Source of the DNA: Promethearchaeota archaeon
GTDB taxonomy: Archaea; Asgardarchaeota; Lokiarchaeia; Sigyniarchaeales; SOKP01
DNA: 64,000 nucleotides
Direction of reading: 5' to 3'
Assembly: GCA_019057795.1 (NCBI GenBank)
Contig: JAHLWS010000082.1
Location: 64,001-128,000 of the forward strand
The position numbers and the translations under genes were made by a program. Shown piece by piece: positions 6,566 to 63,219 of the stretch (its first letter is position 1; each line of letters starts with the position of its first letter). Below the pieces are notes generated by a model. It searched no databases. It worked only from the letters and a program-made list of their open reading frames with translations, and was not told the origin of the DNA.

Positions 6566-7975
6566 TTATTTAATTTCATTACTAATTTTTGTTAAAAGTC
6601 TAAGCATTTCATTTTTTACAAAGTAACCACAGAGAGGGCTAAAACTTGGCACGGGTTCATAACCCCCTTCTTCAACATATTCGTGTATAGGAAATAGGTA
6701 TCCTATCCAATCTTGAGCATTTTGAAAAATAAAAATGTTATCTTTTCCAATTAAAGACGCTTTAAGAAAGCTTTCTCCTATTTCTTCAAACAATTCTCCT
6801 GGAATTGTCATTAAACTAAATTCTTTTTCCTTAGATTTTGATTTTGCCTTAACCTTGATATATTGAATAACAGTGTTGCATCTGAATTTACCTTTATTTT
6901 TATCAATGATAAAAATTGGAAAATTAGAATTTAACATTGTATATCGAGCAATGTTTAACAAGAATAATTTCTTAATTGCGTAAATCAATTTGTTTGTAAA
7001 CCATTGTTTAGAAAAATATTTGTGATCTTTCATTGGAATCCAAAACTCGTGTGCATATATTTGGAATTCTATGGTGCTAAAATAATCATTATCAGAAATA
7101 GAATTCGCTAATTTCAACGCTTCTTCAGCAATAGTATATCCAATTCTTTCTGTATGATGATAAGTACCTAGCTGATCGTATATTGGCGTTTTATCCAATT
7201 CAAATTGTTCGTACTCAGTCCCACATGTTGTTATAGGGTTTAAATCACCTGAAGCGCCATTGAAGTATATTGCTTTTACTTTATTATTTGTTAATTCGCT
7301 AATTTTCTGAATTATACGACCCGGATAATCGGCAGATAATTTATTATTTTTGTATGATAATGTAGTAGGATGGCACGCATAGTTAATAATAAAACCTAAC
7401 AATTCATTTTCTTCTAAACTTTTAAAAGTAATTACTCCTAAATGAGGAAGAGTCTTCCTAGAGGGGTGTCTTCTGTTGATTACGAGGTCTGGATTAAAGG
7501 GTTCCTTTTTCCACGCAATTTTGCAAGACTTTAAATTACTAAATAATCCTTCGACCATTTTCAGTATTTTATTAGTGAACCATACGATGTATTTATCATT
7601 CTTATTCGCACCAAACATAATACCTCTCATTACATTTAGAGCACCTCCAGGCCAATAAAACTCGCCCGTTAAATCAAAAGCAGCGTGAGTATGAGTGGCA
7701 TGCACTAAAATTTGTTCAAATTTTAATGAAGGATATTTCTTAATTATTTTATTTCTAATGTATTTTGTTATAGATAAAGGAACTTTTAACAAATCTAAAG
7801 ATATTAGAAGCAAAAAATCTTTAGTAGAAGCTACTGAATTGCTTTCAATTAAAACGCTATGAACATAAATGTCATCTAACTTCCCTAAACAGGGGTCTTT
7901 ACGAGTATATCCTGCCAAAGGTTTACTAACATATTCTTTGGGAGTAATATTTAACTTACTAAAAGCAACTTTCAT
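6566..7975 (-). CDS. Neutral/alkaline ceramidase-like amidohydrolase
   Basis: PLAGY, ATHTHA, NYACHPT, SADYPG, GASGD, PGELF, GGYE motifs. Confidence 0.82.
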   Translation of the reverse strand: MKVAFSKLNITPKEYVSKPLAGYTRKDPCLGKLDDIYVHSVLIESNSVASTKDFLLLISLDLLKVPLSITKYIRNKIIKKYPSLKFEQILVHATHTHAAFDLTGEFYWPGGALNVMRGIMFGANKNDKYIVWFTNKILKMVEGLFSNLKSCKIAWKKEPFNPDLVINRRHPSRKTLPHLGVITFKSLEENELLGFIINYACHPTTLSYKNNKLSADYPGRIIQKISELTNNKVKAIYFNGASGDLNPITTCGTEYEQFELDKTPIYDQLGTYHHTERIGYTIAEEALKLANSISDNDYFSTIEFQIYAHEFWIPMKDHKYFSKQWFTNKLIYAIKKLFLLNIARYTMLNSNFPIFIIDKNKGKFRCNTVIQYIKVKAKSKSKEKEFSLMTIPGELFEEIGESFLKASLIGKDNIFIFQNAQDWIGYLFPIHEYVEEGGYEPVPSFSPLCGYFVKNEMLRLLTKISNEIK

Positions 7976-22565: not shown

Positions 22566-23921
22566 ATGGATATTTTTGACAAAGTTTTAGAGATTTACCA
22601 ACAATATTACATTTGCCCACATTGTTTAGGTAGAATGTTCTCCTTGTTAGGAACTGATACAACCAATTACGATAGAGGTATATCTCTCTTGCTGGCAATT
22701 ACTATGGAAAATCACAGAACATATTTAGCCCGAGACGAAGACCACGCGAGTGCTATCGTTAAATTAAGAACGCTAGCAGAAAAAGCGTTATACACGCCCG
22801 CTCAAAGCGTTTTAAAGAAAGAAGGTTTTGAATATAACAAGGTTAGTATAGTTGAAAAATGTTATTTGTGTGAAGATATTTTTACCCAAATCCATAAATA
22901 TGCCAAAAAAGCAGAAGAAAAACTCCAAAATATTGAGTTCAAAAACTTTCTTGTAGGAACTACCGTTAACTCTCAAATTGTCAACAGAGAAGATAACTTT
23001 AAAGCTCAATTCACTTTACTAAATTCTGAGTCGTTTAAAAGTCATTTTAACCGAGAAGTTGGAAAATGTCTATCAATAATTATAGAAAAACCCGTAGAAT
23101 TTGCCAAACCTGATATAACGGTTGTTTACTCGTTAAATCTTGACTCATTTGAAATTAATTTGCTCATAAGATCAATTTTTATCTATGGACGATATAATAA
23201 GTTTCTTAGAGGGATTCCACAAACTCATTGGGGCTGTAGGACATGTAGAGGAAAAGGCTGTGAAGAGTGCAATTTTTCTGGAAAGCAATATAAAACTAGT
23301 GTAGAAGAAATTATTAACCCAGAATTCGTTAATGAAGCAAAAGCAGAAGGCTCAAAGTTCCACGGGGCTGGGAGAGAGGATATTGATGTGAGGATGTTAG
23401 GGGAAGGTAGACCCTACATTTTAGAACTAATAAAACCTAAAATAAGATTTTTAGAGCTAGAAAAAATACAAAAAAAAGTTAACAAAAGAAACAAAAGAAA
23501 AGTTAGAATTAACGAGTTAAAGTATAGTAATAAAGAACAAGTTAAATCTCTAAAGCTAGACGCTGAAAACACCAGAAAGGTGTATAGAGCCTTGACTTAC
23601 TCTAATGAGAAAGTAACAAAAGAAAATTTTGGAGATTTATTAAAAAAATTAAAAGATACGCTTGAAAACAAAAAAATACATCAAAGAACACCTGTCAGAG
23701 TGTCTCATCGTCGTGCAGATAAAATTAGAAAAAAAAAAATCTATCTATTAGAAGGAAAATTCGTTAAACCGGGCGTATTTGAATTTCTCATTGAAACTCA
23801 GGGAGGAACTTACATTAAAGAACTCATAAGCGGCGATAATGGACGAACAACGCCATCAATTACGGAAATATTTGGTTTTTCAATTGTTTGTAAGAAATTA
23901 GATGTTCTAAAAATATGTTAG
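22566..23921 (+). CDS. pus10: tRNA pseudouridine(54/55) synthase Pus10
   Basis: CPHCLGR, GRYNK..RGIPQTHW, FHGAGREDIDVRMLG, QRTP.RV.HRR, GGTYIKELISGD. Confidence 0.97.
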   Translation: MDIFDKVLEIYQQYYICPHCLGRMFSLLGTDTTNYDRGISLLLAITMENHRTYLARDEDHASAIVKLRTLAEKALYTPAQSVLKKEGFEYNKVSIVEKCYLCEDIFTQIHKYAKKAEEKLQNIEFKNFLVGTTVNSQIVNREDNFKAQFTLLNSESFKSHFNREVGKCLSIIIEKPVEFAKPDITVVYSLNLDSFEINLLIRSIFIYGRYNKFLRGIPQTHWGCRTCRGKGCEECNFSGKQYKTSVEEIINPEFVNEAKAEGSKFHGAGREDIDVRMLGEGRPYILELIKPKIRFLELEKIQKKVNKRNKRKVRINELKYSNKEQVKSLKLDAENTRKVYRALTYSNEKVTKENFGDLLKKLKDTLENKKIHQRTPVRVSHRRADKIRKKKIYLLEGKFVKPGVFEFLIETQGGTYIKELISGDNGRTTPSITEIFGFSIVCKKLDVLKIC

Positions 23922-50826: not shown

Positions 50827-51108
50827 ATGAAATTTCCACGTACGATAAATCGGTATTGCCCAAAATGTCGCTCTCATACAAAGCACAACGTGACACTCTA
50901 TAAGAAAGGGAAGGAAAGAGCGATGAACCATGGACGAAGACGCCTAGAAAGAAAGAAAAAGGGCTACGGTAGCTTTCCTAAAGAGATATTTCATAAAAAC
51001 GCGAAAATGAATAAAAGATCTCAGCCAATATTAGAATGTTCTGAATGTGGTAAAAAACAATATTCAAAATCATACCGCGTAAAAAAATTCGAATTACAAG
51101 AAGTATAA
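50827..51108 (+). CDS. rpl44e: 50S ribosomal protein L44e (eL42)
   Basis: YCPKC..HT.H, YKKGK, GYG, LECSECGK. Confidence 0.96.
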   Translation: MKFPRTINRYCPKCRSHTKHNVTLYKKGKERAMNHGRRRLERKKKGYGSFPKEIFHKNAKMNKRSQPILECSECGKKQYSKSYRVKKFELQEV

Positions 51109-51122
51109 AATTGTGAAAAATT

Positions 51123-51329
51123 ATGCCAAAGAAAAAAAGACCAAAGGATTTAATTCCCTATCCAAAAAGTAGGTTTTTACGTGTAAAATGCCTAAATTGT
51201 GGCAATCAGCAAATAATTTTTGGGTGTTCTTCTACAGATGTGGAATGTTTAGTATGCGGAAAACTATTACTTCAATCTACTGGTGGTAAAGCACGAATTC
51301 TAACCAAGATTTTAGAAGTGCTCTCCTAA
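51123..51329 (+). CDS. rps27e: 30S ribosomal protein S27e
   Basis: [24 protein letters not shown]. Confidence 0.97.
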
Positions 51330-51369: not shown

Positions 51370-51397
51370 TCGTGAAACCACTCTTATTCTATAAAAT
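51370..51397. other. attL-like recombination site
   Basis: TCGTGAAA-CCACTC-TTATTCTATAAAAT (host arm, 6 bp core, element arm). Confidence 0.8.
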
Positions 51398-51726
51398 CTC
51401 ATATCAAATATATGAAACATAATTTCAAAACAAAATTTATTAAGAATTGCGAAAAATCAATATTTTTAATTATTTAAGACCAATATATCAATTTTGAGCA
51501 ATCTAAGAATCATAGTTCATTGTATCAAGCAAAATATATTATTTCTATATTAAATAAGAGAAAAGAAGCTATTTTTTAAAAATTAACGAAATTGTTAAAT
51601 GATATAATTATATTATTACAGATTTAAGGGTATCATTACTGTATCTGATATAAATGTATCATAAAAAATCAGCTATGATATTTTTATAACTTAGTTTAAA
51701 TAGATTTTGTAGTAATTATTTGTATA

Positions 51727-52044
51727 ATGTCTGTTCCAGAAAAAATTAGTGAAGTTTTAAAAAAAGAAAGCCGATTGAGTATTGCGGAAATTACTGAAAG
51801 GTTGAATGAAACAAGAAAGAGATTAGTTAGAGAAAGCGTATATAGACTTTTAAAGAGAAAGATTATTGTTAAAGACGGTAAAAAAGGAAAGGCTTATTTA
51901 TATTCACTAAAAGAGAACGCTATAGAACCAAAAATATTATTAAAAGAATTACATTCGATTATGAATAAAAGAATGGATTTTGTTGAAAAACCGAGCGAAA
52001 ATGAAACAAATACTATTAAAATAATTGAGGAAATGCTAAAATAA
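51727..52044 (+). CDS. Winged-helix DNA-binding protein
   Basis: LSIAEITERL...VRESVYRLLKRKII...GKKGKAYLYSL. Confidence 0.75.
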   Translation: MSVPEKISEVLKKESRLSIAEITERLNETRKRLVRESVYRLLKRKIIVKDGKKGKAYLYSLKENAIEPKILLKELHSIMNKRMDFVEKPSENETNTIKIIEEMLK

Positions 52045-52319
52045 TGACCTTGTTAGATAAATTGGAGAAATTCAAAAAAAAAGATTCTCTTCAGGGAGAG
52101 AGAAAGATTTCTACTGAAAGAAAAAAAATTATTATCTCAGAGCAAAAAACCCCGAAATTAGAAAGATTGAATGAAATTCCAAAGATTAACAAAAATCTTG
52201 AATTAATCCTAATAAAAAGCGTTTATGCTAACAGATTCGGTTCTACTACTAATAAATTAAAATCAGATATGCAAAAAGCGATAATAAATGCTTGGAAAAT
52301 AGAATATGAGAAGGGATGA
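52044..52319 (+). CDS. Hypothetical basic protein
   Basis: TAATG stop/start overlap with the upstream wHTH gene, preceded by GAGG. Confidence 0.65.
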   Translation: MTLLDKLEKFKKKDSLQGERKISTERKKIIISEQKTPKLERLNEIPKINKNLELILIKSVYANRFGSTTNKLKSDMQKAIINAWKIEYEKG

Positions 52320-52548
52320 TTGATTTTTACGTGTTATTACCTCAATTTACGGAAGCATTTAAGAAAAATTTAGAAAAACTGAAAAAATAGTATATTCTTT
52401 TTTTTAAGTTTTTTAGAATAATTAAAGCGTTTTTTAGATGTTTTTGATATTTTTATTGTATATTATACCATATCTAAAATAAAGATTTTTATCGGCTTAA
52501 AATTTTGGAATTTTATAGCATATCTCCGAATATCGTCTAAACTAAATT

Positions 52549-52902
52549 TTAGTAGTTTTCGATATTGAATTTCTTTTTAGATTCTCTGCGGAAACCAGCA
52601 ATGTTTTTTAAATTTTCGCCTCTACCTGTTCCACCGATAACGCATTTCTCAAGCAAACGGTTCTCCCTATCAATAGTTTTTAAATCATCTAATAGGACTT
52701 CCCCCTTTGTATAAGGTTTTGCTTTGTTTTTGGAATAAATTTTGCTCCAATTAGACATCCACGGTACAGTACATTTCTCTGGAGTTAACAGATAATCGGA
52801 ATATGCCTTTGTCTTAGCTCCTGTTTTGGTTAAGGGCTCAGTTCCTGTATCCTTTCTGTATTTTTCTTGAGTTTTTTCTTTGGTCATTTTTTTCACTTCC
52901 AA
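52549..52902 (-). CDS. Hypothetical basic protein with a motif resembling the Rpo1N C-terminal mini-domain
   Basis: KYRKDTG...GAKTKAYSDY; likely start is the second Met after SD-like GGAAGTGA. Confidence 0.6.
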   Translation of the reverse strand: MEVKKMTKEKTQEKYRKDTGTEPLTKTGAKTKAYSDYLLTPEKCTVPWMSNWSKIYSKNKAKPYTKGEVLLDDLKTIDRENRLLEKCVIGGTGRGENLKNIAGFRRESKKKFNIENY

Positions 52903-53395
52903 TATTTTATTTTATTTGTTTTTTGATTTATCATTGTTCAATTACCTATTTAAGTCTTTCTATTCGCTTCCCAGCATTGAGGTTTCAATTTCAGAAAGGC
53001 AAAAAGAGAATTGAGAAAAGCTCTAAGAAGTATGAATATTCCCCGAAAACCAAAAATGATATTCTCAAAAATTTTTATCGGGATGTATGGAAAACCACTA
53101 AGGCAAGAATTAAAAATCGTAGCAATTTAATAGATTTCTGATATAATCTATATAGGTTGTTCAAAACGCTTTTTCAGTATTATTACTAAAAGTTTAAATG
53201 GGTGAAAAACTATCGTTTAAATATGGTTGAAAGCGTTGAAAAATCGGTTTCTGAACGGTTGGAAAATTGAAAAACAACCAATAAAAGTAAAAGGTGTGAA
53301 AATTGCACTTATTACCTTGTTATCAAAACCGACTAAAAAACTTTTTTACAACTAAAAAAACGCAATAAAAAACCCATAAAATAAAGGAATTAAAA

Positions 53396-54259
53396 ATGTT
53401 AAATGAAAATCAAATAAATAAGATTAGAGAAATGCGGGAAAAAGGCTTAACTATTAAGGAAACGGCAAACGCACTTGAAGTTTCAGAATCAAGCGTTAAA
53501 AAATACACTTCAGAAGACTACGAAAAAGATAACGAACTTGATGAGAAAACGGGAAATTCGTTAACGAAACAATTTGATTTAGAAGAATACGATTTTCAAG
53601 ACGACATAGCTCCGTTGGTTTACAAACTAAAAGACCAAGCAAACGAAATAAATGTTACTCTTCACGATTACCTAACCGATATAAGCAATACCATGAACAA
53701 ATTCCTAAGAATAACAAGTAAACCACAATGGTTTTATTATGTGTTTTGCGAATTAGCCAATAGTTTTTCTCTAATAAACGAACACATAGACGCAACAAAA
53801 TTTATGGAAGCCGTTGATAATTGGTATGAAAGGGAAATAGATATGGAAGAGAGCGAGAAGTTTATTATTGATATTGAAACAAAAGCAGAAAAATTAGTTA
53901 AAAACGCTAAAGAAGAATATAATATTTGGCAAGAAAAAATCGACAATGCCCAAAAAGAATACGAAAAAATAACCTCTCTCCATACTGTTATGATAAATAA
54001 TCTATTAGAGAAACCAAATTTAGAGAAACTACAAAAAACAGAAAAGAAGTTAATAGATGCGGAAAATAGACTAAAAGAATTAGAATTATCAAAATTGATT
54101 TTGATAGAAAAATGTAAAATACTCGAACAATCCGATAAAGATAACAAGATTGCCAAAAAAGAAAATATATTGTTAAAAAAAGCGTTTAAAAAACTTAATA
54201 AACTTTTCCCTCAAGAAATAACCGTTATAATCCAAGAGATTGAAAATGAAATCCAATAA
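53396..54259 (+). CDS. HTH + coiled-coil protein
   Basis: IREMREKGLTIKETANALEVSESSVKKY HTH; K/E-rich heptads in the C-half. Confidence 0.78.
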   Translation: MLNENQINKIREMREKGLTIKETANALEVSESSVKKYTSEDYEKDNELDEKTGNSLTKQFDLEEYDFQDDIAPLVYKLKDQANEINVTLHDYLTDISNTMNKFLRITSKPQWFYYVFCELANSFSLINEHIDATKFMEAVDNWYEREIDMEESEKFIIDIETKAEKLVKNAKEEYNIWQEKIDNAQKEYEKITSLHTVMINNLLEKPNLEKLQKTEKKLIDAENRLKELELSKLILIEKCKILEQSDKDNKIAKKENILLKKAFKKLNKLFPQEITVIIQEIENEIQ

Positions 54260-54545
54260 TCGTAACGAAAGGAAAAAATTTGTGTTGTCTATCATGAGTT
54301 ATATGGTACATCCATATACTGCAAAAGAGATACACGAATTATGCTCCGTGTCGTTAGGTTCGATATGTTCATCCCTAAAAAGATATTGTTCTCAGGGTTT
54401 ACTAAAAAGAAAAAAAAATAATGCCAAAATATTTGAGTATAATATCACACAAAAAGGAATTGAAAGGTTAGAGTACTTAATGGGGAGTTTAAGTATTAAA
54501 GAGCAAATCCAGTTGTTAGTTCGAGAGAAAATTAGATTGTTATAA
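54240..54545 (+). CDS. Winged-helix (PadR/MarR-like) protein
   Basis: TAKEI...SLKRYCSQGLLKR...YNITQKGIERLEY. Confidence 0.75.
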   Translation: MKMKSNNRNERKKFVLSIMSYMVHPYTAKEIHELCSVSLGSICSSLKRYCSQGLLKRKKNNAKIFEYNITQKGIERLEYLMGSLSIKEQIQLLVREKIRLL

Positions 54546-54898
54546 CACGCTTATTGCGGAAGAGAAAGGGTTTTATGGTCAATTTTTCCCTTTCTCTATT
54601 CTCGGTATTTCTAATTTCTATAAAATATGCTTTAAATGAATATTCTTAAATAGTTTTATTCACAATTATTATTTGGATTTGGCATTGACAAAATAATCTT
54701 TAAGCCTTTTTTTTCGCCTTAAGGAAGCTCGAAAATTCAATTGTGTTGAACTCCTTCTCTAAAATCGAGCTTCCTAAATTTTTTTCTTTTCATTATTAAT
54801 GTTAATCTATTAAACTTTTCGCTAATTCCTCTCTTCGATTTTTATCGATTTAGTAGAAAAACGCTTAAATAGTTAAAAAACTATTCTAATTCAACACA

Positions 54899-56065
54899 AT
54901 TGAAAAAAGTGAAGAATCTATTATTCTAAATACCGACAATAATATAATAAAGAGTAATAAAGAGAAATTAGTAAAAATTTTAAAACATCCACCAAGAAAG
55001 TTTCTCTCAATTAAGGAGATAGTAGAAAAAACTGAAATTAACATTAAAAACATCGGAAAATATCTTAAAATCTTAGAAAATGAAGATAAAATAACAATAA
55101 AACACGGAATAACTGATAAACGGAAAAAGCTAATTAAATTTAAACCAAAAAGGGTTCTCTACTTCTTTAAATTTGGAAATAAATACCTACACCATACTCG
55201 CACGAAGCTCAAAAAAGAAGATTTTAAACTTTTGAATATAATAAATGCGAAAGAACCTCAAGATTTAAACCTCCCTAATGATATAGTCAGAATTATAATT
55301 TCCGTATGGGAAAATCAAGAAAAGATTATTGAAGCGGATTTAGTTAATTTTGAAATAGGATTAGGCGGAACTCCGTCCAGAAAGAGAAGTACAATGTGGA
55401 GACCAGAGTTCTTTAATCTTTTCAGTAAACATGCGTTAGAAAAACTTAAATCAAAATATACCATTCACATCTATTCGTTAAAAGAAATCAAATATATGAG
55501 AAATAAAAAAAAATTCCAAAATAAAGCGTATAGACACATCTTTCACGATAAAGAATGGGTTAATTTACTCATAAAAAAAGAAAAGCGTGAAAGATATATC
55601 CCTACTCCGTTTATCTACTACGATTATTTTATATTACGAGTAAATGATATATTACGAATTGAAAATAATGTTATTATTGAACATGAGGGAGAAGAAAACC
55701 AAACAAGGATACCAACAACACGAACGCTTAATATGTCCGTAAAAGCGTTCGAATATTATCATTATATCTATAATTTCATTAGTTTTCACACTACTATTTA
55801 TACTCAAAATGAGCGTGAACCAAATAAAGAACTTATGAGAGAAATGGATATAGTTGTCATGACAAAGGAAATGAATAGAATAGATGATTATTTAGGAATG
55901 CCCACACTCCCAAATTATGAGGACTACATTGACATAATAATTAGTCGTAAGCAAATAATTCCAAAAATTTTATTCGCCCCCCCGCCAAACAATACTACAA
56001 CCCACTCTAATAACATTTTTAAAAAAAAAAGTACTTTCTATTACCCCCATATAAGTATACTATAA
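54899..56065 (+). CDS. wHTH-containing protein, possible replication/regulatory protein (extended from ORF 55232-56065)
   Basis: Frame is open from 54890; the added segment LSIKEIVEKTEINIKNIGKYLKILENEDKI is a wHTH; only ATT/ATA codons are available as starts. Confidence 0.6.
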   Translation: MEKSEESIILNTDNNIIKSNKEKLVKILKHPPRKFLSIKEIVEKTEINIKNIGKYLKILENEDKITIKHGITDKRKKLIKFKPKRVLYFFKFGNKYLHHTRTKLKKEDFKLLNIINAKEPQDLNLPNDIVRIIISVWENQEKIIEADLVNFEIGLGGTPSRKRSTMWRPEFFNLFSKHALEKLKSKYTIHIYSLKEIKYMRNKKKFQNKAYRHIFHDKEWVNLLIKKEKRERYIPTPFIYYDYFILRVNDILRIENNVIIEHEGEENQTRIPTTRTLNMSVKAFEYYHYIYNFISFHTTIYTQNEREPNKELMREMDIVVMTKEMNRIDDYLGMPTLPNYEDYIDIIISRKQIIPKILFAPPPNNTTTHSNNIFKKKSTFYYPHISIL

Positions 56066-56098
56066 TTATATGCTAGGTATCAAAAGTACTTTTTTTTT
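56022..56098. repeat. 16 bp inverted repeat A9GTACTTT / AAAGTACT9 spanning the gene end
   Basis: Arms at 56022-56037 and 56083-56098. Confidence 0.75.
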
Positions 56099-56522
56099 CC
56101 TTAAATCTCTTTAAATAAGAGTTTCAAACGCTCTTCTCATATCCGACCTTTTTGTCAAACTCTCAAAAGCCTACGACTATTTCTCCTCTCGTTCCAATTA
56201 CGATAGAAGCCATCTATTCAAGCTCTTAAAAATCAGCGATTAGAACTTCTCTATTCTTAATTTATAACGATTCTAATTTTTAATTTATCTCAAGAGTAAA
56301 ATAATAAGTCTAATTTAATGTTTTAAACAATTGTTTAAAAACGGTTTTTTTTGTTTAAACCTTTGACAAAAAAAGAATAAAAAAATTATTTTAATTTGAG
56401 TTTTTTTATAGCTTCTAATATCTTATCTAATTTCCCTGTAATATGATGAAGATATTCAATCTGTATTACTTGTAATATATTATCATCTAAATCTCCTTTA
56501 GTGAGAATATTTGTGTGTTTTT

Positions 56523-56771
56523 TTAAATAATCTCAATTTCTCTCAGCTCTTCGTATATTTTATCCATCCATATTTTTTGTATTTTTCTTCTTTTTAAATC
56601 TTTTTTTTCTTCTTCTAAAATATTTCTTAATTTATAAGGAGCTTGGTTGAAATATAAGATTAAATATCTAATTAATTTAGATTTATTTATTTTATTATTA
56701 TCGCTAAATATTTTTAACATTCTATCAGTTTCTTCATCCAAACTTAAAGTTACTCTAACAAATTTTTTCAT
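56523..56771 (-). CDS. Ribbon-helix-helix (CopG-like) protein
   Basis: VRVTLSLDEETDRML......INKSKLIRYLI. Confidence 0.82.
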   Translation of the reverse strand: MKKFVRVTLSLDEETDRMLKIFSDNNKINKSKLIRYLILYFNQAPYKLRNILEEEKKDLKRRKIQKIWMDKIYEELREIEII

Positions 56772-57020
56772 TTATTTTTCCTCTATTATTTTATTTATAT
56801 TATATTTAATTAAATATAAGAATGTTTCATAGCTATAAATAGTTGATTAAACTGATTATATATTTATATATTTATATAATTATATAATTATATAACTTTT
56901 CAGTTAATAGATTTAATTCGATTATATTATTGAAAGTTCTTATAGATATTATATTTTTTAAATAAATATAAAACAAAAATAAGAAATAAAAAAAATTATT
57001 TATTATTACATCTTCCGTTC

Positions 57021-57218
57021 TTAAAAAGTAGTGGCAGGAAGTTGTCCATCTATTTGAAGTGATTTAGCCATCGAAAGTAATACATCCATTAATACATAAT
57101 TCTGAGTTGTTATTTGTTTTAAAACATCTAAAATATTTATAATATCAGCAGATTTAGTATTCTTTTTATGATGTTTAATTAAATCTAATGCTTGATAATA
57201 AAATTCTTTATTATCCAT
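57021..57218 (-). CDS. Small hypothetical protein
   Basis: 65 aa ORF with TATA-like TTTATAAA upstream. Confidence 0.5.
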   Translation of the reverse strand: MDNKEFYYQALDLIKHHKKNTKSADIINILDVLKQITTQNYVLMDVLLSMAKSLQIDGQLPATTF

Positions 57219-57372
57219 AATAATAAAATTAATTCTATGAGCTTTATAAATATATCAAAATTAACAAAATAAGAAAAGAAATAATTATTTCAATATGAAT
57301 TAAATGGTTCAATTTGTATAGATTGATTCAAACATTTAACCTTAAATACTATTTGTTGTAATAATTATTAAT

Positions 57373-57498
57373 ATGTCAATTGAAAAAGAGAATGCAGAAA
57401 ATTCTGAAATTCTTAAATCATTGATTTTAAGTTATGAGAATATGGAATCTAAATTACTTAGTATCAATGAAGAAATTAAAAAATTAGAAGTGGATTAA
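57373..57498 (+). CDS. Small acidic coiled-coil peptide (41 aa)
   Basis: MSIEKENAENSEILKSLILSYENMESKLLSINEEIKKLEVD; below the ORF-track cutoff. Confidence 0.35.
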   Translation: MSIEKENAENSEILKSLILSYENMESKLLSINEEIKKLEVD

Positions 57499-57507
57499 AA
57501 AAAAAGA

Positions 57508-57678
57508 TTATAATTGAATATCTTGATATGGAAACCATTTATCAAATAATTCAATATATTGTTTATAATTCATCTTTACATAGGATTCCACATTAACATC
57601 TTTAACCTTATGATTTAAAAGAATTTTTCGATCTTCTACTGGGCATCCCATTAATTGTCTGAAAGTATTTAATGTTCT
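57508..57678 (-). pseudogene. Relic 3' end of a second tyrosine integrase
   Basis: RTLNTFRQLMGCPVEDRKILLNHKVKDVNVESYVKMNYKQYIELFDKWFPYQDIQL* differs at 8 of 56 aa from the C-terminus of 60000-60914. Confidence 0.93.
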
Positions 57679-57970
57679 CTTTTAATCTCATCACCTAATA
57701 ACGTGGAATTTTTTTTTGGAATATCAGTAATCTCTTTCTCAATTGGAAATCATCATAAAGATTCTATCCATTATTGAAAAATGCTGTAATATTTAACAAA
57801 TTAGCTTTTAGGAAAAAAGATATTAAATAGAAATATATATTAATTATAGATAAACATTAATCAAAAATTTTTAAAATTAAGAGATTAAAATTACTTTTTA
57901 AAATATCAAATTATATATGTTTTTAAATAATTATATTTAAAAAATCAATAAAATATCATAAAGAATAGAA

Positions 57971-58708
57971 ATGATTGATTATAATGAAGTTTTCGATAAT
58001 CCATTATTAGTAGAAGTAGTTATTGAAGCTAGATTTCCTCTTTTATTAAAGATTCCTAGAGACATTGCAGATTTTCAAGAAGCTATTAGTGAAGAATTTC
58101 CTGAAACAAATATAATTTATGATAAAAAAATATTTTTTGATTCAAAAGAAGGTTCAGAAGAAATTAGTGAAAAAGCATGGGAATTCGTAAATCCTGAAAA
58201 TAAGACAAAATGCCAAGTTTTTAATCATAGATTCTCTCTATTTTCTAATACATATAAATCATGGGAAGGATATGAATCAAAAGAGGGATTTCTTGATATT
58301 TTAAAATTTAGTTTGAATAATTTTATAAAAGTATATGGTATCAAAAAATTCAACCGTTTAGGTTTAAGATATATTAACAAAATTGAATTAGAAGAAAAAA
58401 ATTCTAAGTGGTTTAAGAAATATTTCATTCCTTTATTTAATCACGATAAATATAGGATTGAAGATCTTTCTCAGAATTCAGTGCGTTTAAGAGTAAAAAA
58501 ACCGAATTCAGCAGAATTAACAATAATGAGTGGTTTTTTAAAACAAGATAATAAAGATTATTATATGTTAGATTTTGATGCTTATTCTCTTAATATTTTA
58601 CAAGAAAATCTATATGAAACTCTTGAAAAATTACATGAGACTATATTAAAAGAATTCCATTCACTAATAACAGGAGATTGTAGAAAAAAAATGAGAGGTG
58701 AAATTTAA
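57971..58708 (+). CDS. TIGR04255-family protein
   Basis: PLLVEVVIEARF, YKSWE..F, RLGLRYINKI, LDFDAY, LHE....FHSLIT pattern. Confidence 0.85.
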   Translation: MIDYNEVFDNPLLVEVVIEARFPLLLKIPRDIADFQEAISEEFPETNIIYDKKIFFDSKEGSEEISEKAWEFVNPENKTKCQVFNHRFSLFSNTYKSWEGYESKEGFLDILKFSLNNFIKVYGIKKFNRLGLRYINKIELEEKNSKWFKKYFIPLFNHDKYRIEDLSQNSVRLRVKKPNSAELTIMSGFLKQDNKDYYMLDFDAYSLNILQENLYETLEKLHETILKEFHSLITGDCRKKMRGEI

Positions 58709-59343
58709 TTTTAAAGACAATACATACAAGAAGAATAATTAAACCATCTGCCGAGAAGGGAATTACTGGACAAAAAGATATTCCTGAATGGGCTGATGTT
58801 ACTAAACTGTTAAAAAGAAGAGAGACTAAAAGTGAAGCGTGGCATGTTTCTTCATATAAAACTATTGCTTCATTAGGGGATATTAAATCTGCGGGATTTT
58901 CTATAGAGGTTTTCCCTGAAGAGAGTGCTTATGTCAGATTGACTCATATTATTAGACCATCTAAATCTCAAGAATTTGAAGGATCTACTCCTGAATTTGA
59001 GCCTTTTCCAGTTATAGATTTATCAGATACTGAATATGTTTGGATAGACATAGAAGAAGCCGATTTTTTTAATGAAATTGATTTTTTAAATCATCAATTA
59101 TATGAAAAAGAGGAAATTATAAAAGATCTTGAAATTCAAGTCAAAGTATATAAAAATAAATTAAAGAGATATAAAAGAAAAATCCCCAAATTTGAAAAAT
59201 TGAATCGAATAATTAAAATTAAAAATAAAATTATATCTAAGCTTGAGAAAGATATTATTGTTTATAAGGAGAATATAGATCGGTTTACTATAGACTTTTC
59301 CTTACCAGAAGGTTATTATGGTAATGAAGAGTTTAATGAATAA
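58708..59343 (+). CDS. Hypothetical protein with C-terminal coiled coil (extended from ORF 58939-59343)
   Basis: Frame is open from 58702; SD GAGGTGA lies 6 nt before ATT at 58708, which overlaps the upstream TAA. Confidence 0.6.
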   Translation: MLKTIHTRRIIKPSAEKGITGQKDIPEWADVTKLLKRRETKSEAWHVSSYKTIASLGDIKSAGFSIEVFPEESAYVRLTHIIRPSKSQEFEGSTPEFEPFPVIDLSDTEYVWIDIEEADFFNEIDFLNHQLYEKEEIIKDLEIQVKVYKNKLKRYKRKIPKFEKLNRIIKIKNKIISKLEKDIIVYKENIDRFTIDFSLPEGYYGNEEFNE

Positions 59344-59357
59344 TAGGCGAAATTTGT

Positions 59358-59996
59358 ATGGATTTAATAAAAAGTACTCCATTTCCAGATATATTTTGTG
59401 AACCAGAAAAGAAGAATCATATTTTTCAAGGAGATATAATAAAATATACAAATTATATAAATACAAAACAAGAAAATCTAGGATTTATAATTTTATCAAA
59501 TTCCTGTGATTTAGAAAATTTAAAAAATAAAACAATAATATCTATTGCCCCAATATTTCCTTTTAATTTTGTTTTTGACGATATGCTCAGTGAAGCGTTT
59601 AATAGAACTAAAAAGAAAGTGGAAACATTAAAATCTTCTAAGGAAGTAATAGAACACTTTACAAATTTAGTTAGTCAATATATTTATGATGAATCAAATT
59701 ATAAGAAAAAGTATACATTTCTTATTTCTCCTTTATCTAAATTCGAAAATAATCCAACAATTGCTCATATAGAACATATAACCTCAATAAAAATAACAGA
59801 ATTGAAAATAATTCTTCAAAATAGAATAATATCAATTAAACCACCATGGAGAGAAAAATTGGCATTCAAAACAGGATATATATATAATAGAATCGCAACA
59901 TATACCCCTAAATTCAAAGATATAAAGAAATGGTGGATTTCTACATATAATGAAATTTTTGAAATTAAGAAAAAGGAATTGAAAAAATTCATATAA
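59358..59996 (+). CDS. QGD...SxxCD-motif protein, putative MazF/PemK-like fold effector
   Basis: FQGDII, IILSNSCDL, ISIAPI, RIISIKPPWREKL......YNRIA. Confidence 0.5.
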   Translation: MDLIKSTPFPDIFCEPEKKNHIFQGDIIKYTNYINTKQENLGFIILSNSCDLENLKNKTIISIAPIFPFNFVFDDMLSEAFNRTKKKVETLKSSKEVIEHFTNLVSQYIYDESNYKKKYTFLISPLSKFENNPTIAHIEHITSIKITELKIILQNRIISIKPPWREKLAFKTGYIYNRIATYTPKFKDIKKWWISTYNEIFEIKKKELKKFI

Positions 59997-59999
59997 AAT

Positions 60000-60914
60000 T
60001 CAGAGGTTTATATCTTGGTATGGATACCACCTATCATATAACTCTATAAATTGCTTATAATTCAACTTCACATAAGATTCTACATTTACATCTTTAACCT
60101 TATGGTTTAGCAGTATTTTTCGGTCTTCATTTGGACAACCCATTAATTTTCTGAAAGTATTTAATGTTCTCCTGAATGTATGACATGTAATTGTTTTCTT
60201 TATTTCTAAATCATCTAAAACATGCTTTAAATAAGCATTAAACTGTCTTTCTGTATATCTCTTAGATTGAGTTGATAAAAATAACGCTTTTGTTTTAACA
60301 TTTTTTAATTTGCGTTCTTTAAGATAAAGTTTTAGAAATTTAGCTAACTCTTTAGAAATATAATATACCTTTTTTCCTGTTTTACCCATTGTTTTAATAA
60401 ATCTCTTTTCCAAATTTATTTCATTGTAATCAATATTTATTAATTCTCCTTTTCGCATTCCTGTTTCAGAAAAAATCCTAAATATGAGATAATATTTGAA
60501 ATGTCGTAATTTTAAATAATCTAAAATATCTTTTACTTCCTCTTTAGTCATTACAATATCTTTATTTGTTTCAGGTTCTTTATGATTAATCCCATTCCAA
60601 TTAATTGAATGTTTAGGTATAATGACAATAAATTTATATTTTCTATAATATTCCATGCAAAAGTTAAGAAAGCTAATTATTAATGTCCATTTTGTCTTTT
60701 TTGTTCCTAAGCTGATTGTTTCAAGATGTTTTAAATAATCAAAATAATCTATAAGAATATCTGTATTAATATCAAAGATATGTCCTTTATGACCAAAATA
60801 TTTAGGATTAAAAAAATAGTTTAATGATGATTTTCTTGTTTTAACTGATTGATTAGAATGTCTATAATGATTAAGATATTTGCTTATTATTGTATTATTC
60901 ATAGGTTTATTCAT
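60000..60914 (-). CDS. Tyrosine recombinase/integrase (Xer-like)
   Basis: Catalytic set: TGMRKGEL (R), GKTG (K), HTFRR (HxxR), LLNH (H), ESY (Y). Confidence 0.95.
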   Translation of the reverse strand: MNKPMNNTIISKYLNHYRHSNQSVKTRKSSLNYFFNPKYFGHKGHIFDINTDILIDYFDYLKHLETISLGTKKTKWTLIISFLNFCMEYYRKYKFIVIIPKHSINWNGINHKEPETNKDIVMTKEEVKDILDYLKLRHFKYYLIFRIFSETGMRKGELINIDYNEINLEKRFIKTMGKTGKKVYYISKELAKFLKLYLKERKLKNVKTKALFLSTQSKRYTERQFNAYLKHVLDDLEIKKTITCHTFRRTLNTFRKLMGCPNEDRKILLNHKVKDVNVESYVKLNYKQFIELYDRWYPYQDINL

Positions 60915-61411
60915 TTCAGTTTATACCTCCCTCTTGGTGTCAGTTCAATTAATCCTTCTTCATGTAATTCAGTAATTATAGAAAATACAATTTCTTTATC
61001 CAAATTAGTTTTTTCAATTATTTCTTTTGGGTTTAATGTATTATGAGCTTTCAATAAATTAATTATAGTATCTTTTGCTGTAGAATCTGCTTTTATTGAG
61101 AATTTCTTAATCAATCTTAAAGTATTATTCATTTCGTTAATCTTATTTGTTCTTTCTAAGGTTAATTCTTGTAATTCCATAATCTTTTTAGTATTCTGAG
61201 TTAATTGTTCTAATATTACAGGATTAAACTGAAAATTTGATGTAGTTTGAAATAATTCGGGGTTCTCTAATTTCCGAACATAATCAAAGATAGCTATGCG
61301 ACAAAAATCAGACATACTAGTATGCTTTTCTTTAGCTAAATCGTTGATTTTATCTTTCTCATCCTGACTCAGAGAAATCTGAATAAAAATTCTTTTATTT
61401 CCATTTGACAT
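60911..61411 (-). CDS. RHH + wHTH regulator, translationally coupled to the integrase
   Basis: IQISLSQDEKDKI..LA......MSDFCR (RHH); LNPKEIIEKT...ELHEEGLIELTPRGRY (wHTH); ATGA overlap. Confidence 0.8.
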   Translation of the reverse strand: MSNGNKRIFIQISLSQDEKDKINDLAKEKHTSMSDFCRIAIFDYVRKLENPELFQTTSNFQFNPVILEQLTQNTKKIMELQELTLERTNKINEMNNTLRLIKKFSIKADSTAKDTIINLLKAHNTLNPKEIIEKTNLDKEIVFSIITELHEEGLIELTPRGRYKLK

Positions 61412-61477
61412 TTTTTTTAAACTCTAAAATTAATTTTTATTATAATAATAGCAACACACTCATATAAATGTTATGAA

Positions 61478-61505
61478 AATTTATATGATAACCACTCTTT
61501 CACGA
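61478..61505. other. attR-like recombination site
   Basis: AATTTATATGATAA-CCACTC-TTTCACGA (element arm, 6 bp core, host arm). Confidence 0.8.
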
Positions 61506-61535: not shown

Positions 61536-62549
61536 TTAGTCGAAATACGTCTTTACAGCGTGTACAAAAGATTTTATGTTTTTTATAGGTGTGTCTCCAG
61601 TAATTTCACATCCTGGTGCGACTATAAAGCGTGGATCACCTCTACTTGCATTTAAAGCTGCGTGAACTGCTACTTCAATTTCTTTTGGTGTGCCAGATGG
61701 AAGTAATTTAACATGATCAATATTTCCAGCCACACCTATCTTATGATCAAACAATTCTTGGGTTTTAGTAATGTCAACATATGGTCCAATGCTCAATGTA
61801 TTTAACCTATCAATTTTTTTAAGATAAGGCGCAACAACATTTAGATGTGACGTTATCTTTCCACACATATGAAGGATATTATAGTCATACACATTAAGGA
61901 TCTCAGGTAGATAATCTATACTGAATTCTTTTACATGAGTAGGTCTCAACATCTGAAGATCATGTTCACAGATTACAAAGATTGTTGCTCCAGCTTCTTT
62001 CAAAACAGAAATGTACTCCTTAATTATTTCAATAGTTCGTTTGACTATTTGGTGTACAAAATTAGGGTTTTTTACTAGCCTTCTTATCAAAGCTTTATAA
62101 GGCATTAGCTGTAAGCTAAAAGTTATTGGTCCCGTCATGAAAGCTGCTACAGGGACATTAGCTTCCTCGGCAAGAATTCGCGTGCCTTCAATCAAAACTC
62201 TTGTACTTTCTGTTAACATGAAATCTGGTATTTCTAATCTTTCTAAATCACTCTCTGATTCAATCACATATTTGGTAATCCAGGGGTTTTTATTAGGCGG
62301 ATAAGTAACTTCTGCCCCACAAGCTTCGGCAACCGGCCAGCTTGGTTCAACCTGAATTGTTGTTATATCATAACCATACAAATCCAATGCTTTTAGGTGA
62401 GCATTTGCAGCTTTTTTCGCATCCTTATACATACTATTATAAGTCAGCCTATTTATGATCCCCGCATGATCCCCGATTTGGGGAAATACTGGTGGTCGAT
62501 CAACTGAACGACCTTTCAAAGCAGCAAAAATACGATCAAATGAATCCAT
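61536..62549 (-). CDS. URO-D family / MtaA-CmuA-like methyltransferase
   Basis: VDRPPV, AEACG, TGP, ILHMCG, AGNID, IVAPGCEI...TP.KN. Confidence 0.85.
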   Translation of the reverse strand: MDSFDRIFAALKGRSVDRPPVFPQIGDHAGIINRLTYNSMYKDAKKAANAHLKALDLYGYDITTIQVEPSWPVAEACGAEVTYPPNKNPWITKYVIESESDLERLEIPDFMLTESTRVLIEGTRILAEEANVPVAAFMTGPITFSLQLMPYKALIRRLVKNPNFVHQIVKRTIEIIKEYISVLKEAGATIFVICEHDLQMLRPTHVKEFSIDYLPEILNVYDYNILHMCGKITSHLNVVAPYLKKIDRLNTLSIGPYVDITKTQELFDHKIGVAGNIDHVKLLPSGTPKEIEVAVHAALNASRGDPRFIVAPGCEITGDTPIKNIKSFVHAVKTYFD

Positions 62550-62658
62550 TATGTATAATATTCACTTTAATTTATAAAAATAAAAATTAGAGACTAAATA
62601 AATCTAATATTTTTAAATAATTAAATATAAAATATTCTGAAGTTTTCTACTTCTGAAG

Positions 62659-63219
62659 ATGCCATTCTTTCAAATAAAATATGACGATGTTTATTTTGAT
62701 CCTAAAGTTCAGGAGATGTGTATTTCACCTAGTTTTAAGTGTCCTTTTTATGAGCATTCGTGGAGTTGTCCTCCAAATTCACCTTATCTTGAAAAAGCTA
62801 TGTCAACTTACACAGAATTTTATTTAATCTACTCTACATTTGATCTAGAAGAATACATAAAGAAAGAAAAGGAAAAGACAAACAGATCAGAATTTTTCAT
62901 TAAAAACACATTTTTGCTCACCAAAAGTTTCGAATTAAATGATTTGGAAACTGAATTCGATAAATTCTTAACCCAATATAATAAAAAGTATAAAAAACGA
63001 CTTCTTTTGTACGATGGGACATGTAAATACTGTAAAATTCAAAACGCGGGAAATTGCACCTTTGATTCTGGCGAACCATGCCGTTTTCCAAGAATGATAA
63101 GATATTCTATGGAAGCTGTAGGGATTGAAGTTATAAGGACAGTACTTGAACTGAATTTGGATGTTAAGTATCCCTCCAATAAATATTCATTTAGATTTGG
63201 CTTAGTTTGCTTTAAATAA
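62659..63219 (+). CDS. DUF2284 predicted metal-binding protein
   Basis: C....CPFY..SWSCPP, G.CKYC...C......CRFP...RYSMEAVGI. Confidence 0.85.
   Translation: MPFFQIKYDDVYFDPKVQEMCISPSFKCPFYEHSWSCPPNSPYLEKAMSTYTEFYLIYSTFDLEEYIKKEKEKTNRSEFFIKNTFLLTKSFELNDLETEFDKFLTQYNKKYKKRLLLYDGTCKYCKIQNAGNCTFDSGEPCRFPRMIRYSMEAVGIEVIRTVLELNLDVKYPSNKYSFRFGLVCFK

Follow-up and report, generated by a model that had tools for sequence, protein, structure and literature searches.

The DNA analyzed here, a stretch of 64,000 nucleotides from contig JAHLWS010000082.1 (64 kb, referred to below in its entirety as the window), comes from a Loki-type (Promethearchaeota) Asgard archaeon and carries, shortly after the ribosomal protein gene rps27e, what is very probably an integrated mobile element. 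On its left lie rpl44e (50827-51108; PF00935, E 3e-24) and rps27e (51123-51329; PF01667, E 7e-21), which occupy 50827-51329 on the plus strand, and on its right, outside the element, there is a URO-D family gene on the minus strand (61536-62549). The rps27e element, as we call it, measures 10,114 bp between its terminal repeats and spans positions 51370-61505 with the att sites included. Its left site, attL (51370-51391, no strand assigned), is composed of the host arm TCGTGAAA, the center CCACTC (51378-51383) and the element arm TTATTCTA; its right site, attR (61484-61505, also without strand), is composed of the element arm TATGATAA, the same center (61492-61497) and the host arm TTTCACGA. 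Common to both is a 10-nt direct repeat, AACCACTCTT (51376-51385 and 61490-61499), of which the window contains exactly two copies, at 51376 and 61490, against 0.08 expected; none of 100 shuffles reached two. Rejoining the outer arms yields TCGTGAAA-CCACTC-TTTCACGA, a perfect 8-6-8 palindrome of 22 nt, and the inner, element-derived arms are symmetric at 11 of 14 positions. A preliminary description of this DNA had proposed the terminal repeat, the CCACTC-centered attB and attP sites, and the degree of symmetry of each; both ends read as it described, the repeat is unique to them in the window, and the symmetry of the inner arms in fact continues to 25 of 33 positions. It had also placed the insertion outside any tRNA, and no tRNA gene was found in the window. 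The GC content of the element is 25.2%, compared with 31.5% in the rest of the window, and lies below that of all 180 same-size sliding windows of its contig.

Adjoining attR are two genes on the minus strand. The outer one (60911-61411) encodes a 166-aa protein with ribbon-helix-helix (RHH) and winged helix-turn-helix (wHTH) regions, and it overlaps by 4 nt an integrase gene (60000-60914) whose 304-aa product is a Xer-like tyrosine integrase (PF00589, E 3e-22, 79.5 bits). The latter has the full catalytic set (R154, K178, H245, R248, H271 and the C-terminal Tyr), all of it invariant in the alignment, and the RHH-wHTH gene is kept beside the integrase throughout the family, where the two are always co-transcribed; the complete catalytic residues and the coupling to an RHH-wHTH regulator had both been claimed earlier and were confirmed. 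The integrase gene is undivided and lies about 580 nt from the att site, unlike genes of the SSV type. The best family and structure matches of the protein are XerA and XerD, and XerA 5hxy is the nearest solved structure (E 2e-8). Its best curated family is archaeal XerA, at 79.7 bits versus a cut-off of 220, so that by this score it is not a XerA orthologue. A separate Xer-type recombinase gene of the source genome is located on contig C56. The integron-integrase model gave 34.9 bits versus a cut-off of 265, and the palindromes described below are dispersed singly, without arrays; the identity of the element as an integron was ruled out on both grounds. No relative of the integrase was found in IMG/VR, and deposited phage and archaeal-virus genomes returned only bacterial integrases with less than 31% identity.

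The regions that would form the two arms of attP have features of their own. The P arm region (61440-61491, minus strand) contains, on the minus strand, CATAACATTTATATG, which relatives keep at a fixed distance from the center and which is probably the promoter of the RHH-integrase operon. The P' arm region (51384-51430, plus strand) is the imperfect inverted copy (25/33) of the region next to attR and includes a TATA-like stretch that may also act as a promoter. Conservation of a motif 16-18 nt from the center, probably the promoter of the RHH-wHTH gene, suggests that the RHH-wHTH protein regulates or directs integration, and we consider it most likely to be a regulator or directionality factor.

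To look for the empty site, the rpl44e locus was taken from 30 relatives. The attB on which the preliminary description had staked its boundaries, TCGTGAAA-CCACTC-TTTCACGA, was found in many genomes of the same genus some 40 nt beyond rps27e, unbroken and without mismatch, and with one mismatch in others. Of the 41 other genomes in the genus, 18 have the right half with its CCACTC center, in a single copy. The left flanks of the relatives were 76-94% identical to that of the window, and the alignments ended where the repeat does, at 51385. Given the exact empty site in relatives and the position where the alignments stop, the element boundaries are correct. The intergenic DNA around the rps27e palindrome has diverged beyond alignment between relatives, and the URO-D gene is missing from the locus in the two closest ones.

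The gene content of this neighborhood (61536-63219 in the window; loci L031-L036) varies by species. One relative, G014, has no extra genes to the right of the palindrome; in the others the number is one to five. In G005 and G009 a further gene, for a 318-aa protein, separates rps27e from the palindrome, and the window's URO-D gene is not at their locus. This variability on both sides suggests that such sites are long-term hot spots.

The target turned out to be one member of a family. The pattern TCGTGAAA-N6-TTTCACGA is present in the source genome in 10 exact and 2 one-mismatch copies, with 2 further sites occupied. Among the spacings from 0 to 30 tried in that genome, only 6-nt centers were found, and a reversed-pattern control gave 0 copies. 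All palindrome copies fall outside open reading frames of at least 80 codons (by a crude scan), often just past the 3' end of a gene and in several cases between convergent genes. Palindromes were found in all 41 other genomes of the genus (3-12 copies each) and in 113 of the 131 other genomes of the family, and in a few outside it; the overall range was 1-12 per genome. Their flanks extend the 8-nt arms by a weak W-G-W only, the full 11-6-11 repeat at rps27e being found only in G014. Identical centers are met again in other species and genera, and at the three loci for which conservation of position was examined the palindromes correspond as the same site, whether their flanks have diverged or been conserved. 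Neither a simple protein-binding site nor a hairpin model would predict that centers recur between genera. The earlier statement that the element inserts downstream of rps27e consequently holds for the location of the site, but not for the target, which is a dispersed family of palindromes and not the rps27e locus itself.

Relatives of the integrase were found next to halves of these palindromes. In G005, a 72%-identical integrase and its RHH-wHTH gene are followed by GAATAA-TCCCGA-TTTCACGA; this locus is orthologous to a region on contig C34 of the source genome (flanks 90% identical in nucleotides), where the TCCCGA palindrome is intact. In G042, the end of an element with a 75%-identical integrase reads GGAATAA-GTTCAG-TTTCACGA, and the GTTCAG palindrome is intact in other species. 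The attL of these two relatives was sought and not found. The source genome itself has a second complete element of 16.4 kb on contig C22 (50639-67080, in part within locus L030), which carries a D5-like primase-helicase, a larger cargo, and an RHH gene that overlaps the gene of an integrase 51% identical to that of the rps27e element. A 14-nt repeat within the palindrome of center GAAACG marks its ends, and the site reconstructed from them, TCGTAAAA-GAAACG-TTTCACGA, occurs without interruption in 5 relatives and with one mismatch in 4 more; in G040 the flanks are contiguous.

A scan of metagenome contigs provided 74 further relatives of the integrase. Among the 57 loci with enough upstream DNA, NCGTGAAA lies 560-705 nt before the integrase start in 16, versus 0.6 expected from its density elsewhere in the same loci, and several shorter contigs are alike. 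At least 14 of 20 distinct integrase-adjacent centers, among the matches listed, equal the centers of intact chromosomal palindromes, a coincidence expected for about 2% of random hexamers. Within the clade of the window (70-77% integrase identity), nine elements have eight different centers, which indicates that the center changes much faster than the enzyme. The cargo of the rps27e element is common to none of the relatives. A separate set of integrases (L088-L100, 53-56% identical) has a different conserved sequence of about 60 nt at the att position, and no half-palindrome.

Whole attP sites (arm-N6-arm), of the kind that the preliminary description had suggested looking for near homologous integrases, were present at the same place in six contigs (L081, L084, L119, L109, L077 and L078). 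The layout foreseen for attP, ATAA-N6-TTAT between inverted arms, is directly present in the unintegrated relative L081 (16.7 kb; integrase 70% and RHH-wHTH protein 78% identical), where it reads GAGAATAA-CTCTCA-TTATTGTC. That of L084 is AAGTGAAA-CATCAA-TTTCACTT and that of L119 is ATTGAAA-GAACAC-TTTCAAT; L077 and L078 have common arms around different centers. Four of seven attP centers match those of intact palindromes. The orientation of insertion was informed by contig L085, which opens with a stretch that matches the window in the 3' end of rps27e and the intergenic DNA (90% identical over 113 nt) and continues into a sister element (77% identical). Here the RHH-integrase end abuts rps27e, opposite to the orientation in the window, and the center, read relative to the integrase, is CCACTC in L085 and GAGTGG in the window. 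The same site and arms with both the center and the insertion flipped are as expected if the recombinase binds symmetric arms and the asymmetric center sets direction.

We consider it very probable, on the whole of this evidence, that the rps27e element is a mobile element integrated by its own Xer-like integrase into a target drawn from the palindrome family and chosen by its 6-nt center. A circular form with the attP TATGATAA-CCACTC-TTATTCTA would have been recombined by this integrase with the chromosomal TCGTGAAA-CCACTC-TTTCACGA. The circle would pair with a palindrome of matching center, and strand exchange would take place across the shared 6 nt, presumably at their edges. The integrase family would recognize the constant arms, the match between the centers of attP and attB would pick the site, and the polarity of the center would set the orientation. 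The exchanged region should be heteroduplex in the products, and an occasional non-cognate reaction could hand an element a new center, which would account for the fast turnover of centers. The rps27e element may be excisable and mobile in the present day. We also lean, with some caution, towards a broader proposal, namely that the palindromes constitute a family-wide set of landing sites whose arms are read by one type of integrase and whose center serves as an address and orientation code, in the manner of a natural multiplexed lox-like system, with retargeting by center swap and not by a change of enzyme, and with the set being retained through an unknown host function or through upkeep by the elements. 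Integration by tyrosine recombinases is known; the palindrome-family target system is new, and no description of such a family or of a center used as an address was found in the literature searched.

The remaining genes of the element were annotated by family searches. Next to attL, on the plus strand, are a 105-aa winged-helix protein with weak wHTH matches (HTH_9, Penicillinase_R, ArsR-type) and a 91-aa protein without assigned function (51727-52319), followed by a 287-aa protein with HTH_7 (PF02796, E 1e-6) and a coiled coil, overlapped by a 101-aa Lrs14/MarR-like wHTH protein with weak NF040939 and PADLOC WH matches (53396-54545), and by a 277-aa protein (55232-56065) without Pfam, NCBIfam, PHROGs or PADLOC match. 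A minus-strand gene for an 82-aa RHH protein (56523-56771; weak PF12651 match) precedes an AT-rich non-coding stretch (56772-57020; 18-20% GC) that contains an 8-nt unit in five tandem copies (56855-56895) and may serve the element as a replication origin or as a divergent promoter region. The remnant of a second integrase gene (57511-57690, minus strand) preserves the C-terminal 60 codons with two stop codons, and is 80% identical in amino acids and 85% in nucleotides to 60010-60171. Either a deletion fused two tandem elements and left it behind, or a cassette took the place of the gene's end; in both cases this dead fragment makes the element a mosaic. A plus-strand cargo of three genes (57971-59996) encodes a TIGR04255 protein (57971-58708; E 2e-29), a coiled-coil protein (58939-59343) and a 212-aa protein (59358-59996), the last two without assigned function, with a match also to phrog_4575, of unknown function. 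These genes form a tight cassette facing the integrase, for which there was no PADLOC match, and which may be a defense or addiction module.

The preliminary description had seen no capsid, terminase, relaxase or recognizable primase, and this held up in the Pfam, NCBIfam, PHROGs and PADLOC searches, none of which produced a match to any of the four. Nor was there a Pfam or PHROGs match to a double jelly-roll capsid protein or packaging ATPase, in a comparison of sequence and not of fold. In the suggested comparison with CRISPR spacers, the 23 spacers of the genome's own arrays gave only chance matches of up to 17 nt to the rps27e element, the C22 element and contig C33.

Several observations weigh against integration by a functional, center-guided integrase as set out above. 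Neither the circle junction nor the empty site of the rps27e element is present in the assembly, the relative in G005 has lost its attL, and about 40 of the 57 metagenome loci lack a half-palindrome, some of these being free forms and some belonging to a clade with another type of site. There is only a weak resemblance between the attP arms of the window's clade (GATAA / GAATAA) and the attB arms (GTGAAA), unusual for a plain two-domain recombinase and a hint that a helper takes part. Nor does this reading account for the retention of the palindromes, centers included, by their hosts. Finally, the integrase remnant with its stop codons at 57511-57690, and the failure to recognize any replication, transfer or virion gene in the element by sequence, count against it, and both are what would be seen if the element had arrived site-specifically and were now a trapped, decaying mosaic, immobile on its own, left by a deletion-fused pair or by a cassette that hit an integrase gene. 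A cargo common to no relative and the fact that the G005 relative is already without one att site point in the same direction. On the other hand, neither att site of the rps27e element is damaged and the two have the same 10-nt core; the reading frames of the integrase, with its complete catalytic set, and of the RHH-wHTH protein are uninterrupted, and the motif upstream of them is conserved; and helpers can move or replicate small integrase-bearing elements. Such a trapped state is a real but less likely alternative.

The inverted arms around a 6-nt center have the layout of dif (PMC8371274), the rps27e site of G014 is a perfect 11-6-11 repeat, and a separate Xer-type recombinase is encoded on C56; the palindromes might accordingly be dif-like sites of host XerA, with the host enzyme moving the element in and out as in bacterial integrative mobile elements exploiting Xer (IMEX). 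We find this improbable, as dif is a single-copy site and here there are about 12 copies with differing centers, every element of the family encodes an integrase of its own, set at a constant distance from its site, and the 11-nt extension is not general. Of the term dif-like in the preliminary description, it is the layout that stands, and not the rest, given about 12 copies per genome and an integrase that belongs to the element and is no XerA orthologue. That the repeats arose by chance, in an ordinary genomic island or an assembly chimera, has in its favor that short repeats are common in an AT-rich genome and that this is a metagenome-assembled genome with an estimated contamination of 7.5%. 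This explanation, to which we give hardly any weight, is refuted by the exact empty site in many relatives and the contiguous flanks of the C22 site in G040; moreover, a sister element sits at the same junction on an independent metagenome contig, and the same anatomy is found at three other palindromes.

Candidate roles of the palindromes for the host were also considered. Rfam gave no match at the empty site. The palindrome hairpin folds well (z = -6), as the sequence is a palindrome, and a role as an RNA 3'-end hairpin was unsupported since the polarity of the flanks does not track the upstream gene (rps27e in one case, a tRNA-like gene on C34 in the other). This tRNA-like gene, on the minus strand of the source genome contig at approximately 23316-23421 (1617-1722 of locus L172), ends about 60 nt from the TCCCGA palindrome and probably contains an intron, because it gave only a weak tRNA/tmRNA-clan match and was missed by ARAGORN. 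The arms equal both halves of the bacterial parS consensus, in swapped order. A parS-like role was rejected, as neither a ParB N-terminal domain nor a canonical parS was found in the source genome, and the likeness was treated as chance.

Other features were noted beside palindromes. Contig C33 of the source genome (locus L029) has an intact palindrome with the center CGGTTA at 2714-2739 and, 5.1 kb further on (approximately 7852-7869), an 18-nt direct repeat of this center, the right arm and 4 flank bases. The DNA in between carries genes for PD-(D/E)XK, Nmad3 and a metallophosphatase fragment and none for an integrase; it may be an island that occupies another landing site without an integrase of its own. 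At a palindrome with this CGGTTA center, metagenome contig L087 carries an element that does encode one. In genome G004, four palindromes lie 11-33 nt from the ends of contigs (C61, C90, C91 and C177) and two centers occur twice in the assembly; assembly breaks beside palindromes suggest strain-level differences in insertions.

The proposed use of arms and center has parallels in well-studied recombination systems. In Cre/lox and FLP/FRT one recombinase binds symmetric arms, and the asymmetric center must match and sets both partner and orientation. The spacer variants of those systems were engineered from single natural sites, whereas here many natural centers appear to operate in parallel on one chromosome and the arms of attB and attP differ. 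The pdif modules of Acinetobacter comprise many sites with common arms and different centers, with variable genes alongside, and the palindrome family resembles them in all three respects. In Xer/dif, cleavage takes place at the edges of a 6-nt spacer (PMC8371274), and IMEX such as the CTX and TLC phages exploit that system (PMC9226527). The likeness lies in the inverted arms around a 6-nt center and in the best matches of the integrase to XerA and XerD; the differences are that dif is single-copy and served by a host enzyme, with IMEX lacking a recombinase, and that here the element has its own integrase and the sites are chromosomal with 8-nt arms.

Archaeal tyrosine recombinases, as reviewed, mostly have tRNA targets and a few intergenic ones (PMC8371274). 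Elements of the SSV and pNOB8 types and pTN3 share with the rps27e element a tyrosine recombinase, a circular attP form and a conserved dyad-symmetric host target (PMC8371274). They differ from it in that here no tRNA gene is the target and, compared with SSV, the integrase gene is not split by integration. The closest comparison in a Loki-type host is Fylgjavirus 1 of Ca. Lokiarchaeum ossiferum B36, an active provirus shown to excise and circularize (bioRxiv 10.64898/2026.02.13.705702). It is likewise inserted in intergenic DNA and not in a tRNA gene, has an inverted repeat at its site and encodes a tyrosine-recombinase-like protein; an outward primer with the 3' end ...TTTTCGTGA hints at arms of the same kind, although the preprint text gives no att sequence. 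Fylgjavirus 1 is nevertheless a virus, of 16.1 kb, that encodes a packaging ATPase and a double jelly-roll capsid protein, unlike the rps27e element with its lack of a recognizable virion gene, and the preprint contains no description of a site family or of what the center does.

Little is known of how mobile DNA enters Asgard chromosomes, and most of the archaeal integrases studied target tRNA genes. The elements described here belong to a widespread family in Loki-type archaea that uses a small set of conserved palindromes differing only in their centers, and these sites explain the islands of variable genes beside them. The half-palindrome rule offers a simple way to search Asgard metagenomes for such elements, both integrated and free. 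Moreover, the palindromes and their closely related integrases amount to a natural set of mutually exclusive recombination sites, which may become a genetic tool for organisms that have none.

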